A stretch of 63,981 nt of DNA, from positions 1-63,981 of the IMG/VR virus record IMGVR_UViG_3300014933_000403, one strand, 5' to 3'. The position numbers were made by a program, and so were the translations under genes. Under the pieces are notes generated by a model. It was not told the DNA's origin and made no database searches. It saw nothing but the letters and a program-made list of their open reading frames with translations. The DNA comes from a virus. Its lineage: Duplodnaviria; Caudoviricetes. How positions within the stretch are numbered: position 1 is the stretch's first letter; each line of letters starts with the position of its first letter. Below, piece by piece: positions 5,137 to 24,817 of the stretch.

Positions 5137-5420
5137 CTATTGGGAATATCAATAAAAAGCCGTTCCCGAAAGAACCTGCTTATCCAATTGCTAAGGAAAT
5201 CCCTGACGTTGATCCTGTGGCAAGAGATGTGGCATTTATAGGTATGCTGATCGGCAGACATAGGCACAGCCTCTCCAGAGGAGTGAATAATCATTTTGAG
5301 CAGGAATTGAGTAAATTTATACAACAGGTAAAATCTCAGGCATATAGCAAAGGATTAAAGGATATGGATAGAATGCATGGAAAAATAGACACCTTAAATC
5401 AAGAAGAAGATGGAAAGTAG
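5121..5420 (+). CDS. Hypothetical protein
   Basis: Overlaps both neighbours in the operon. Confidence 0.55.
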   Translation: MGKYIAIGNINKKPFPKEPAYPIAKEIPDVDPVARDVAFIGMLIGRHRHSLSRGVNNHFEQELSKFIQQVKSQAYSKGLKDMDRMHGKIDTLNQEEDGK

Positions 5421-6120
5421 TTTCCCACACCCGGTAAACCCAAAATCAAACCCAAAGATCGTAGCACTCATCGGTCTACATGGTGCAATAGGTTATGGCC
5501 TTTACTGGTCAGTAATTGAAATGCTGCTCGCAGAGCCTGCAGGTAGGCTACAGTTGAAGCCCTGGCTTTACAGTGCCCTGACATCACTCATGAATCTTCC
5601 TAAGGAATACGATATGGAAGGATTCGTTTCAGATTGTATCAACACGGTGGAGTTATTCGCTACCGATGGTGATTACTTCTGGGATGAAACTATACAACCG
5701 GCAGCATTCAAAAAGAAACCTGCTGCTAGGGTAGCCACCATAAAATCCAACCCGGAAATACAGAAGAAATGGGCTGAACTAGAGAAAATACTCCCTGCCA
5801 ATATCACAGAGCGTTGGGTAATCATTAAAACGTTTATCACAGATGAAAAGCCTGACTTCATAGAACCATACGCCACCGCATGGAACATCTTCGCATCCTC
5901 CCAAAAGCTTGCCCAGATAGAAGCCATCAACGAGACCAGGAAGAAGAAATTCGCCACCAGGATCAAGGATGAATTATTCAGCTTTTATGCTATCTTGGAG
6001 GTGATCAAAAAGGATGAATTCTACCGAGGGTTGAAACAGGGGCAAGATTGGAAGGTGACATGGGATCACATATTCGAGAATGAAATGAATTACCTCAAAA
6101 TACTTGAAAAAAGAAAATGA
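5410..6120 (+). CDS. Putative replication initiator (DUF4373-like N-terminal domain)
   Basis: PKIVALIGLHGAIGYGLYWSVIEML N-terminus; C-terminal WN..A....L...I...RKK...WKVTWDHIF..NYLKILE domain; upstream of the helicase. Confidence 0.65.
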   Translation: MESSFPHPVNPKSNPKIVALIGLHGAIGYGLYWSVIEMLLAEPAGRLQLKPWLYSALTSLMNLPKEYDMEGFVSDCINTVELFATDGDYFWDETIQPAAFKKKPAARVATIKSNPEIQKKWAELEKILPANITERWVIIKTFITDEKPDFIEPYATAWNIFASSQKLAQIEAINETRKKKFATRIKDELFSFYAILEVIKKDEFYRGLKQGQDWKVTWDHIFENEMNYLKILEKRK

Positions 6121-6649
6121 CCAAAGACATCGTACTAGTAGAGTTGTTCAGCGTCATTGGTGGCTTTCACTTAGGTCTCAAGAACGCAGGATTTAATATT
6201 ACCCATTGTCTCTTCTCAGAGATTGATGATCACGCTATTGCTAACTATAAATACAATTTCCCAGATGCAGAACACATTGGATCTGTTCTAGATGTAAGAG
6301 GAGAGGATATTAGAGAAATGTTTCCTGATTCAACCATCGTTGTTACCTTTGGTTTTCCTTGTCAGGATTTAAGTATAGCAGGTAAAAGGCTAGGTTTTAA
6401 AGGTGCTAGAAGTAGCCTTTTTTACCATGCTGCTAGGATTGTCAGACAAATTCAGGCAGATTTGTATATATGGGAAAACGTGCCAGGACTAATGTCTTCG
6501 AATGGCGGTGATGATATCAAGGCTGTTTTCGAGGAGATGTATTTAAGTGGGTATATTTTTGATTTTGAAGAATTAAATACTAACTGGGTTCTCCCTCAGA
6601 ACCGAAGTAGGATTTACTCGGTTGGATTCAACATAAAAAATCTACAAAA

Positions 6650-7276
6650 ATGTTTAATAGAAACAGATGGTCACCCGAAGAACTTGAATCATTACGTCAA
6701 AATTATACAAGGCGTTCTTCTAACGAAGTGTCCAGACTACTTAACAGAAGTCCCAAGTCAGTTCGATCAAAAGCGGAAAGACTTGGCATTAGATTACTGG
6801 AAAACAAGGGAGCAGGGTCAGTACCTTGGACAGAATCTGAAAGACAAATTCTTAGGGATAATACAAACTCTCCCATTAGAGAAATTGCAAAGCTTATACC
6901 TGCACATACAATCATTGCAATTAAAGCACAACGATCAAAACTTAAATACTTCCCAGACCAAACCCCAAAACATAATAGTAACGGATACAATGTCAGATAC
7001 GGAACAGATGAGTCTGGGAAAAGAAAGTCGTTCATGGTACATAGAGATGTTATCGAACAATCTATCGGCAGAAAACTACTTAGTAGTGAGCAGGTTCATC
7101 ATATTGATTTCAATAAACGAAACAACGAAGAACCAAACCTTTTCTTATGCAGAGATGCAGAGGAACATAGAACTATTCATCATACACTTAACTATCTTGT
7201 TTCCGAACTGCTGGGAAGAGGCGTTATATGGTTTGATAGAGAAGAAAAAAAATATAAACTATGCCCAGAAAAATAG
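6650..7276 (+). mobile_element. HNH homing endonuclease with N-terminal Myb/HTH-like repeats, nested in an alternate frame of the methyltransferase
   Basis: WSPEELESL and WTESERQIL repeats; HR.VIE..IGRKL...EQVHHIDFNKRNN...NLFLC...EH..IH. Confidence 0.85.
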
Positions 7277-7293
7277 AGTAAGCAAAAGAAACC

Positions 7294-7503
7294 TTGCATC
7301 AACTGATGATAGTAATGCCGTTCGATTTCCCTCTCCCAATGAAACGACAAATGAACCTGTCGGATATTCTGGAGCCGGATGCTTCGGAGGATTACTTCCT
7401 ATCACCGAAGACGATTGCGGGTCTCTTGAAGGGTCAAGCGCCTCCACAACTGTTAGAACAATCACAGCAGGAGGGAACTCAGCCGGGATGCATTCCAACA
7501 TGA
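7294..7503 (+). CDS. Putative EcoHK31I-type methyltransferase beta subunit in the third frame
   Basis: NLSDILEPDASEDYFLSPKTIAGLLK resembles the beta-subunit consensus as I recall it (SLSDILE...KYYLS...CAGIL). Confidence 0.6.
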   Translation: MHQLMIVMPFDFPLPMKRQMNLSDILEPDASEDYFLSPKTIAGLLKGQAPPQLLEQSQQEGTQPGCIPT

Positions 7504-8412
7504 CGCTGATCATTAATGACGAAGGTGAATTTAAAGATCGTGATATGGCAACTGCGATTGATTCCAATTACCATAAAGGAACAGACTCGCATCGGCAGAG
7601 GTCTATGGTTAAAATTGAAGCCACCACCTTATTCGACCAAGACACCATGCCTACCATGCCTACCATGCGTAAAGGCGGTGCGATGACGATGACCAAAAAG
7701 CACAACTGGGATGTTGTAAAAATAAAATCAGCAACAAAGGATGGTTATGAAGAAGCAACAGTAGGAGATTCTATAAATCTGTCCATCCCCAACTCTGCCA
7801 CCCGAAGGGGCAGAGTTGGGGATGGACAGGCGAACACATTGGATACTCAATCAAACCAGGCAGTGATTGTAGCAAGCAGAGGTCGCGGAGAAAATAATGA
7901 GCAGACGCTAGAACCGAACACCACGAACACCACGAACACCATTACAGGAGTGCAGAAAGACAATATGGTCATGCTTGACACCAGACAGAAAAGCCATGAT
8001 CAAAAATCTGGCAAATCGGGCATCAGAGAATACACAGATGAATCACCAACCATCAGTTCAACTATACAGAAGGATGTACCGAAAGTGATTTCTCAGGAAG
8101 ACAACATGATGCTGCGTGATGGCAGAGACAACAGGTCTTGTCTTAAATCTGGAAGACAGACTGAACTGGGAATGGAAGGCGTATCAATCAGAAGGCTGAC
8201 AGAGGTGGAGTGTGAAAGATTACAGGGATTCCCTGATAATTAGACTAAGTATGGCATCTATGACAGGATGACTAAATTCAACAGAGTTAAGTTTGATTTT
8301 GACTCTATATCTGGGATGAAAGAAATATCACGATCAAGCAGGTATAAATTATGTGGCAATGCAGTAAGCGTATGTATGCCAGAACTAATTGGAAGAAAAA
8401 TACTACAGCAGA

Positions 8413-9903
8413 ATGGAATTGACTAGCCTAAATAAAGACCGGAAGAGAAGAAGATCATCGGATGACTTGCCGATGTATGGTAAGGTACCCCCAAATGCAA
8501 GGGACTTGGAAGAAGCCGTTCTTGGGGCTATTCTTTTGGATGCGTCTGTATTCGATACGGTATGCGAAATCTTGAGGGCAGAATGCTTTTATGTAGAGGC
8601 AAATCAAAATATTTTCAGTTCAATGTTATCTCTCAGGCAAAAGCAAATGCCTATCGATTATTTAACCCTTATTGAAGAACTGAAAGCGAAAGAAGTGCTT
8701 GATGCTATAGGCGGCCCGATTGCTATAGTTAAGATCACCAATCGCGTCCCATCATCTGCACACGTAGAAGCCCATTCCAGGATCATACTGCAGAAGTTCA
8801 TACAAAGAGAATTAATCCGTGTGAGCGGGGAGATCATTGGCGATGCATATGAAGACAGCGCTGATGTGAAAGACCTGATCAGTGAAAGCGAAAGAAAGGT
8901 ATTGAATGTCGCAGGGTTCTTCCAGAAGAAATCATATTCCGACTCGGCATCAGTAATAGCACGTACATTAAACATCATCGATGCACAGAGAAACAGCACA
9001 GATGACTTTACTGGAGTACCAACAGGGTTCCCTTCCCTAGACAGAATAACATACGGGTGGCAGCCAACAGATTTAATCATCCTGGCAGCACGACCATCTG
9101 TAGGTAAAACCGCACTGGCTCTCAACCTAGCGATCAATGCAGCTAGGCATCACAGTAAGCCAACACCGGTAGGACTGTTCTCTTTGGAGATGAGTGAGAC
9201 ACAGTGCATGAACCGTATCCTATCAGCTGAATCAGGGATCATGTTCGAAAAAATTTCCAGAGGCAAGATGAGTGACTTTGAATATGATCACTTTATAAAA
9301 GAAGGCGTAAGGAAGGTAGAGATCGCCCCACTATACATAGATGACACCCCTGGTCTTAATATATTCGAATTCCGTTCAAAGGCAAGGAACATGGTCACCA
9401 AGCAGAAGGTTGGGTTGATCATCATTGATTACCTACAACTTATGACAGGTGATGCCGGCAAAGGAAACAGGGAGCAGGAAATCAGCAACATCTCCAGGAA
9501 CTTAAAGATAGTGGCCAAGGAACTCAACGTGCCGATCATAGCATTATCGCAGTTATCAAGGCAGGTAGAGAGCCGTAAAGAAAATAAGATGCCTCAGCTG
9601 AGTGATCTCCGCGAATCGGGAGCCATTGAACAGGATGCAGATTGTGTTATGTTCATATACCGCCCAGAATACCATGACATCCTTACCAATGAGAACGGGG
9701 AATCCACAGCTGGCGAGACTCATATCAAGACTGCTAAGAACAGAAATGGCAAGCTAGGCATCACCAGGCTCAGGGCAAGATTTGAGATACAGAAATTTGA
9801 GGAAGTTCCGGATGAGCCAAACCTCCCTAAATGGACACCGGTGCCAACAAACGTGAAATCATTCTCAGGATCTGCGGACAAAGAAGAAGACACCCCGTTC
9901 TAA
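8413..9903 (+). CDS. dnaB: Replicative DNA helicase DnaB
   Basis: PP...LEEAVLGAILLD, AARPSVGKT (Walker A), FSLEMS, IIIDYLQL, LSQLSR, DLRESGAIEQDAD, KNRNG. Confidence 0.97.
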   Translation: MELTSLNKDRKRRRSSDDLPMYGKVPPNARDLEEAVLGAILLDASVFDTVCEILRAECFYVEANQNIFSSMLSLRQKQMPIDYLTLIEELKAKEVLDAIGGPIAIVKITNRVPSSAHVEAHSRIILQKFIQRELIRVSGEIIGDAYEDSADVKDLISESERKVLNVAGFFQKKSYSDSASVIARTLNIIDAQRNSTDDFTGVPTGFPSLDRITYGWQPTDLIILAARPSVGKTALALNLAINAARHHSKPTPVGLFSLEMSETQCMNRILSAESGIMFEKISRGKMSDFEYDHFIKEGVRKVEIAPLYIDDTPGLNIFEFRSKARNMVTKQKVGLIIIDYLQLMTGDAGKGNREQEISNISRNLKIVAKELNVPIIALSQLSRQVESRKENKMPQLSDLRESGAIEQDADCVMFIYRPEYHDILTNENGESTAGETHIKTAKNRNGKLGITRLRARFEIQKFEEVPDEPNLPKWTPVPTNVKSFSGSADKEEDTPF

Positions 9904-24746: not shown

Positions 24747-24816
24747 GGGGAGGTAACTCAGGGGCAGAGTAGCAGCTTAGGCTTGTTAGTCGGTGGTTCG
24801 AATCCACCCCTCTCCA
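24747..24816 (+). tRNA. Atypical tRNA with a UAG (Leu) anticodon and an alanine-type acceptor stem
   Basis: GGGGAGG/CCTCTCC-A acceptor, ACTC/GAGT D-stem, CT-TAG-GC loop, GGTGG-TTCGAAT-CCACC T-arm; 70 nt, short variable loop, no encoded CCA. Confidence 0.75.
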
Positions 24817-24817
24817 C

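Follow-up and report, generated by a model that had tools for sequence, protein, structure and literature searches.

The virus record IMGVR_UViG_3300014933_000403 (63,981 bases, estimated completeness 89%; the whole of this stretch is referred to here as the window) carries a C5 cytosine-methyltransferase (MTase) gene that overlaps open reading frames (ORFs) in both other forward frames. The main ORF, which defines frame 0, spans positions 6117–8243 of the plus strand, the strand of all parts of this locus. According to the ORF listing it encodes 708 amino acids (aa); it matches Pfam PF00145 (E 1e-42) and has homologues P0001–P0013. It comprises motifs I–VIII, a read-through insert, a variable region and motif IX (IRRLTEVECERLQGFPDN, 8187–8240), and ends with an in-frame TAG (8241–8243) at a position where the relatives carry Trp (GFPDNWT). 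The ORF reading and the alignment show the MTase continuing beyond this stop in the same frame (8244–8426) with motif X (GNAV, 8355–8366), which in the present copy is located downstream of the TAG; the 52-aa ORF at 8268–8426 is also in the frame of 6117. Thus, frame 0 holds all C5-MTase motifs: I (FSxxGG), IV (PCQ), VI (ENV), VIII (QNRxR), IX (RRLTxxExxRLQGFP) and X (GNAV). Motif VIII (PQNRSRIYSVGF, 6594–6629), ending in the VGF codons 6621–6629, contributes the final host codons ahead of an in-frame insertion cassette of 732 nt or 244 MTase-frame codons (approximately 6630–7361). A 208-aa HNH endonuclease gene is hidden in the +2 frame of this cassette (6650–7276). Its ATG lies 20 nt inside the cassette behind an A-rich leader, and 85 nt separate its stop codon from the cassette end. 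The +1 frame contains a third ORF, termed ORF-X, which in the window is read from a TTG (7294–7503, 69 aa; FDFPLP..LSDILE..YFLS..AGLLKGQ) and has in-frame ATGs at 7306 and 7315. Its ancestral start, ATG 7261, overlaps the last HNH codons and is followed here by a TAA at 7279–7281. In a preliminary description of this DNA, a frame starting at 6117 (its alpha frame) had been reported to stay open across the 208-aa and the 69-aa ORF. These ORFs were all found where it had placed them and the frame is open over both, but the in-frame TAG between motif IX (GFPDN) and motif X had gone unmentioned.

Homologous loci were used to delimit the cassette. A protein search returned 1,061 relatives at E ≤ 0.001, the best 120 of which were listed, and twenty sequences were aligned (alignment A1). 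In 16 of the 20 aligned sequences, motif VIII (QNRxRIYxVGH) is separated from the block G..G....FPI.E by an insert of about 244 residues, which the other four (P0079, P0017, P0022 and P0054) lack. The empty site is seen in the uninvaded loci L088 and L090, and in the uninvaded reading QNRERYYFIGH is directly followed by IGT..FPITEND. As VG(F/Y) codons occur at either end of the cassette (6621–6629 and 7359–7367), its borders can be placed only to within about 9 nt. Every locus has the insert in phase, and the frame 0 reading past it (GYSGAGCFGGLLPITEDD..TVRTITAGGNSAGMHS) agrees with the uninvaded enzymes, so that no frameshift is needed by the MTase. A passage from frame 0 into frame 1 and back, by an intron combined with a frameshift, was considered and rejected, since uninvaded homologues are continuous in frame 0 (QNRER..VGH..FPITEND..TVRTLTGGG). 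The distribution of the insert bears out the earlier proposal that an HNH gene invaded the MTase gene, and the alignment of homologues with and without the HNH, which had been suggested as a check, bounded the insert to the in-frame segment given above.

An initial broad locus scan with whole-protein alignments recovered uninvaded genes only, and these became the comparison set. Scans with the insert alignment identified a single viral locus and five from metagenomes, one of which was identical to the viral locus, leaving five distinct relatives for which DNA is available (L083, L084, L085, L086 and L087), with insert identities of 38–59%. A scan of reference genomes for the insert gave 135 pattern matches, none of which was confirmed. 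All five distinct loci retain the HNH ORF in the +2 frame as well as an MTase frame without a stop across it.

The assignment of the 208-aa product as a putative HNH endonuclease rests on PHROG matches and on the conserved HH..N..N..H..H motif. HNH endonucleases make up 11 of the 12 matched PHROG families (best match phrog_19902, E 1e-15). The HNH proteins of the relatives are 49–69% identical to that of the window, and the motif residues are invariant in the six sequences. Only two homologues of this protein have been called in a set of 5.8 billion, in agreement with a nested gene that escapes gene callers. A sequence search of the Protein Data Bank (PDB) with the HNH profile gave no match at E ≤ 0.01. 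The N-terminal half of the protein (residues 2–83, window 6653–6900) contains two repeats of the pattern W..SE...L...S..(V/I)S..LNRS.KSVR.KA.RLGI and matches phrog_323 ('transcriptional regulator, D5-like', E 5.6e-13); judged from these repeats it is probably the DNA-binding part. The HNH gene is probably selfish. Additional inserts were noticed in two homologues. In P0003 a second in-frame insert (about 235 aa) separates GFPDN from WT at precisely the position of the TAG in the window, and P0009 has an insert of about 190 aa ahead of motif IX. Both may represent further hidden cassettes.

Between 6117 and 8426 the MTase frame contains two stop codons (8241 and 8424) versus 59 and 57 in the other two frames. 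Within the HNH ORF the MTase frame has no stop and the third frame has 27. For a test of chance, the HNH protein was kept fixed, its synonymous codons were shuffled and the stops arising in the MTase frame were counted. In 20,000 shuffles the mean was 6.96 stops, and a stop-free MTase frame was never obtained (0/20,000). When the codon order was shuffled instead, the mean was 8.39 stops, with zero stops again in 0/20,000. The codon context in the HNH gene is strongly biased: xTA codons are followed by C or T in 10 of 10 cases, and none of the six xTG codons precedes an A. In the window and the five relatives (6/6 loci) the MTase frame has no stop across the HNH ORF, where the shuffles predict 2.1–9.2. 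The fraction of stop-free shuffles was 0/5,000 for L083, L084 and L085 each, 0.0012 for L086 and 0.036 for L087; L084 and L087 contain the HNH ORF in part only. The loci of the relatives were retrieved through local matches without any requirement for an open frame, so that this result is not a selection artefact. We conclude that the stop-free MTase frame across the HNH gene is kept by selection and not by chance. This agrees with the preliminary description, which had considered the absence of stops over the 627-nt overlap as unlikely by chance and as a sign of selection; the depletion of stop codons that it proposed to compute was evident in all six loci, and stops in the alpha frame of relatives within the HNH overlap, which had been named as a possible counter-indication, were found in none of the five.

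The peptide that would be produced by reading through the cassette in frame 0 is conserved, with identities of 37–50% among the six sequences. In the segment 7152–7271 the frame 0 identity reaches 0.62–0.69 versus 0.53–0.61 in the HNH frame, and the third codon position of frame 0 is the most variable one. AlphaFold2 predicted nine helices for the insert, with block-mean pLDDT values of ~60–90 within the whole protein and a mean pLDDT of 71.9 when the insert was folded alone. By a Foldseek search of the frame 0 insert model against the PDB no known fold was found; the matches were generic helical bundles (best E 0.54). PHROGs gave no match for the frame 0 insert, and with Pfam the 708-aa protein matched PF00145 only and no intein domain.

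A sliding comparison of the frames among the invaded loci revealed where each of them is under constraint. Frame 0 is the selected frame in 6117–6626. In 7302–7457, frame 1 has the highest amino acid identity (0.41–0.80 vs 0.24–0.42) and the first codon position of frame 0 is the most variable; past approximately 7450, frame 0 is again the selected frame. Upstream of the cassette, the +1 frame of the invaded loci is closed, with only 15–19 codons around motif VIII. In all five relatives ORF-X starts with MRKIEE, MRKLEE or MRKIDE at an ATG located 10 nt before the HNH stop. This new ATG, supplied by the cassette, is conserved in 6/6 loci, and comparison with uninvaded loci showed that the cassette tail provides not only the start codon of ORF-X but also its first ~30 residues (..PFDFPLP..).

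The same peptide (..GFYPKIESGYTLSDIL..EV..KYFLS.K..) is encoded in the +1 frame of uninvaded MTase genes, where it lies over motif VIII. For a survey of this ORF we used 160 uninvaded loci, in 148 of which motif VIII was located by a motif search, yielding 139 distinct ORFs. The +1 ORF across motif VIII comprised at least 100 codons in 129 of the 139 distinct genes. Its median length was 168 codons compared with 40 in synonymous shuffles, and for 109 genes the observed length was reached by 0/200 shuffles. Among 31 uninvaded genes, third-position variability drops from ~0.6 to 0.17–0.25 near motif VIII, and past motif VIII the +1 frame is conserved better than frame 0. The 69-aa ORF of the window matched a profile built from uninvaded +1 ORFs only with 32.3 bits (E 6.6e-10), while 200 shuffles scored at most 1.8 bits. 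On this evidence, the third-frame ORF represents a genuine coding frame that is conserved, with purifying selection over motifs VI–VIII in the uninvaded relatives. That the locus codes in all three forward frames, as had been proposed, is in line with the superior conservation of frame 1 in 7302–7457 and with this profile match.

A profile of 46 +1 peptides retrieved 5,872 representative clusters with a cut-off of E ≤ 0.001, of which 3,493 remained at E ≤ 1e-10. Eight of ten family members tested against Pfam match the C-terminal part of PF00145 (profile positions ~188–324), and the long sequences that were inspected reach motif IX and, in three cases, motif X as well. By their motif content, the long members of the +1 family are a second, motif IX–X-bearing chain of two-frame C5-MTases. 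Neither Pfam nor PHROGs gave a match for the 69-aa ORF of the window, and the ORFs of its relatives match phrog_16143. Literature listings searched for a widespread +1-frame ORF family yielded no description beyond M.EcoHK31I.

Several arrangements of the enzyme were observed among related genes. Among close relatives (L084:1–1917 and L090:1501–2205; P0014, P0016 and P0017), some are split enzymes with a first chain ending in ..MTLLRV and a stop codon, and a second ORF next to it; others are circularly permuted proteins in which the motif IX–X half comes first. In a more distant group (L045:3001–4537, also L036 and L053) the motif I–VIII half stops and the motif IX–X half follows further on in the +1 frame, the conserved +1 ORF over motif VIII being a third, separate piece. 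The two consecutive chains of L084 and L090, and the variable region plus motifs IX–X on the long +1-family members, resemble the published outline of M.AquI-type split C5-MTases (PMC3404938). Unlike these, the window has motifs I–X on one chain, and the small ORF is nested rather than consecutive.

Association of the ORF-X product with the MTase was examined by complex prediction, using P0001 with alignment A1 and ORF-X with alignment A4. The pass mark of the complex score is met by 58 of 80 solved complexes and by 2 of 110 mismatched pairs. The pair scored 0.85 (best of three controls 0.00), with a run-to-run contact agreement of at least 37% and a partner pLDDT of at least 53. In the model, ORF-X residues 8–12 (MPFDF) pair with MTase residues 147–153 and 165–171, which form the motif VII/VIII strands, and further contacts are predicted with residues 686–699 (motif IX) and 751–762. 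The prediction supports binding of ORF-X to the MTase. The heterodimeric MTase of the preliminary description is not supported as stated; for the present locus it is this prediction (0.85 vs 0.00) that points to it.

A comparable arrangement has been described for a two-polypeptide C5-MTase: in M.EcoHK31I the beta subunit is nested in another frame of the alpha gene and carries motif IX, which is lacking in alpha (PMC2836561, PMC3404938). The present locus is similar in that a small alternative-frame polypeptide, predicted to associate with the large chain, is encoded inside a C5-MTase gene. In contrast to the published system, motif IX is located in frame 0 and ORF-X is without it. The proposal that the 69-aa ORF is akin to M.EcoHK31I beta was therefore not upheld. 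Instead, ORF-X resembles the segment after motif VIII of monomeric enzymes: a profile search against the PDB gave weak matches to Dcm (E 1.7 and 2.1) at Dcm residues 246–280, the segment following motif VIII. As far as the motif content and the published outline go, ORF-X is a layout analogue of M.EcoHK31I beta and not a member of that family.

Hidden, out-of-frame HNH endonucleases have been described in actinobacteriophage DNA methylases, namely in the ShiLan domain and in the insertion of Pacc40 gp60 (Arsenault, Gosselin and Gogarten, Genes 2025, PMC11855218). The ShiLan HNH is reported to start with GTG 18 bp into the insert and to stop in the last 4 nt of the insert, and its read-through peptide was modelled with poor confidence (PMC11855218). 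As in the published description of ShiLan and Pacc40, the insertion in the window is located at a conserved site within a phage DNA methylase gene and is missing from close homologues, lacks stops in the host frame, contains an alternative-frame HNH ORF beginning a few bases in (here the ATG at 20 nt), and bears no intron or intein signature (PMC11855218). Several features set the present locus apart from ShiLan as described. The host gene is a C5-MTase invaded directly past motif VIII, and the HNH gene has an ATG start behind an A-rich leader and a stop codon that is followed by another 85 nt of insert. The peptide read through the insert is conserved, and a helical bundle was predicted for it with confidence; in addition, a third-frame host ORF has its 5′ end rebuilt by the cassette. 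The likeness to the ShiLan HNH is drawn here from layout and published description. Dual coding by a hidden out-of-frame HNH gene is already published (PMC11855218), and the present locus is a richer example and not a new kind, judged from that account.

The copy in the window differs from the 99% identical P0001 at three places: V388A (codon 7278–7280), a 3-residue NTT unit, and stop709W. A tandem 9-nt unit (ACCACGAAC, read as NTT; window 7908–7940) is present with one copy more than in P0001. The V388A difference could arise from a single-base change at 7279, which would make TAA versus CAA in frame 1, as deduced from the P0001 protein and not its DNA. On this basis both point differences are nonsense in the window, TAG 8241 in the MTase and TAA 7279 in ORF-X, and the HNH ORF is intact. 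As the MTase and ORF-X both carry nonsense changes, the enzyme is probably crippled here. The pairing of the two changes is suggestive of a functional link or of a selected loss; it could reflect selected loss of the enzyme or sequencing error. Public DNA contigs (four runs of one study) do not cover 8241 and show no listed difference at 7279 and no joints, and thus carry no information on the two stop codons or on an empty allele. Recoding of TAG 8241 or its reading by a suppressor tRNA was considered and rejected: TAA, TGA and TAG end 24, 17 and 11 long open segments in the window, and the only tRNA gene of the window, a tRNA-Leu with anticodon TAG (24747–24817), is no suppressor.

Taken together, we consider it probable that a phage C5-MTase gene has been invaded after motif VIII by a read-through HNH cassette and has a partner in the third-frame ORF-X. 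The 732-nt cassette would have entered the gene directly past motif VIII. The MTase would be translated through it without splicing and carry a predicted helical insert of 244 residues. The HNH protein would be made from the internal ATG 6650 behind the A-rich leader and may serve as a homing nuclease against uninvaded alleles. By its insertion the cassette severed the +1 ORF, as the comparison with uninvaded loci shows, and it provides a new ATG overlapping the HNH stop together with ~30 N-terminal residues. The ORF-X product may be a small trans-acting piece of the enzyme whose FxFP strand pairs with the motif VII/VIII strands. A more far-reaching interpretation we put forward only tentatively: that the mobile element is adapted to DNA coding in two frames, with a helical read-through peptide and a new +1 start and N-terminus coupled to the end of the HNH gene, so that three proteins are obtained from one 2.3-kb locus and the +1 product is a trans-acting strand of a seemingly single-chain MTase.

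Several points weigh against this interpretation. With Pfam HNH_3 (PF13392) the 208-aa ORF reached 23.6 bits, below the cut-off of 24.8. A lower synonymous change in the HNH ORF could partly come from a younger, horizontally spread cassette. The alignments used for the frame comparisons were guided by the frame 0 protein and comprised four to six sequences, with some windows of 36–91 codon pairs. From the +1-frame peptide pattern (F.FP..LSDIL) we infer a recoded duplication at the cassette ends; at the DNA level, comparison of the 5′ junction with the cassette tail gave no significant direct repeat in three loci (p 0.14, 0.83 and 0.99). The complex prediction was made with self-built alignments, and its pass may echo the folds of monomeric MTases, in which the same strand follows motif VIII in cis. 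Read-through, internal initiation and the absence of splicing are what we infer, because none of the public RNA runs is listed with the locus. Finally, ORF-X and the MTase are both stopped in the window, and the three-product state may hold in the relatives and not in the present copy.

HNH homing endonucleases occur in phage group I introns and in inteins, and free-standing homing genes split host genes. In common with these, the locus has a selfish nuclease gene at a conserved host site with host function preserved; it differs from them in having neither a detectable splicing element, of RNA or protein type, nor a split gene, so that stop-free read-through would preserve the function. Phage group I introns that carry HNH genes and sit at conserved catalytic sites are a classical arrangement, and the insertion at a conserved motif would suit a cassette that is a group I or other self-splicing intron, spliced from the mRNA and with an open host frame that is incidental. 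With Rfam, the whole window gave no intron family that reached the gathering score, and 6400–7700 gave none at E ≤ 10, Intron_gpI included, a negative result that is tempered by the fact that its models may miss group I introns bearing a large ORF. However, such an intron would have to be accommodated in merely 20 nt before the HNH ATG and 85 nt after the HNH stop. In addition, the host frame is free of stops in 6/6 loci where 2–9 are expected, the insert is always in phase, and its frame 0 peptide is conserved and predicted to be helical. We therefore regard a spliced intron as quite unlikely. Alternatively, the HNH ORF could be a spurious overprint on an intein or on a genuine functional domain. 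In favour of this, the insert keeps the host frame, is conserved and is predicted to fold, and a distant relative (P0111) contains an intein-splicing Pfam domain. But the first residues of the insert are Asn-Ile-Lys and the residue next to its end is Gly, not the Cys, Ser or Thr of intein flanks; PF00145 is the only Pfam match of the 708-aa protein; PHROGs has HNH families for the +2 frame and none for the frame 0 insert, and the Foldseek matches of the latter remain poor. This explanation is hardly credible.

A different objection concerns ORF-X, which might not be translated and be conserved because the MTase frame is constrained, or the DNA as such, for instance as a homing site. ORF-X does overlap conserved MTase sequence, the window has a TAA six codons past the ancestral ATG, frame 0 of single-chain MTases already contains the full set of ten motifs, and the translation of ORF-X is deduced from sequence. 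On the other side, conservation past motif VIII is higher in the +1 frame than in frame 0, with the first codon position of the latter the most variable, in invaded and uninvaded genes. Moreover, a median of 168 stop-free codons in 139 genes stands against 40 in shuffles, the cassette gives a conserved new ATG in all six loci, long family members extend into motifs IX–X as a real second chain, and the complex prediction passes. An untranslated ORF-X thus appears unlikely. Very improbable is a decaying pseudogene with an open frame due to chance or to an assembly artefact. The TAG at 8241 and the TAA at 7279 compared with P0001 would fit such decay, and the public contigs mentioned above neither cover 8241 nor list a difference at 7279; yet the shuffle tests and the conservation of three frames in relatives at 38–59% identity rule out chance as the source of the architecture, and only the present copy looks damaged. 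The invasion of an MTase gene by a read-through HNH cassette, with ORF-X as a partner, remains the reading that we prefer.

The MTase gene lies inside a replication module. Upstream (window 5410–6120) is an ORF with a weak match to Lin1244_N (E 7e-4, under the cut-off), and downstream (window 8389–9903) is a DnaB helicase gene whose start overlaps the end of the MTase. In the four public runs, contigs of very high word depth (153 to 2,114) span from 6000 to ~6300–6743 and then end; the word depth of the remaining locus in the same runs is at most 40.

The locus extends the class of hidden HNH genes published in 2025 from actinophage methylases to an environmental phage C5-MTase, and the supplementary data of that report may include similar C5-MTase cases (PMC11855218). 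It shows how a selfish element can enter a stretch that was already dual coding without destroying either host frame. Furthermore, it draws attention to a +1-frame ORF family in phage C5-MTase genes that is very large and for the most part unannotated (129 of 139 genes; 5,872 protein clusters). As standard gene callers handle nested +1 ORFs poorly, this bears on phage annotation and on the build of anti-restriction enzymes. If the +1 product is indeed a trans-acting strand, thousands of phage C5-MTases regarded as 'monomeric' would be two-chain enzymes.

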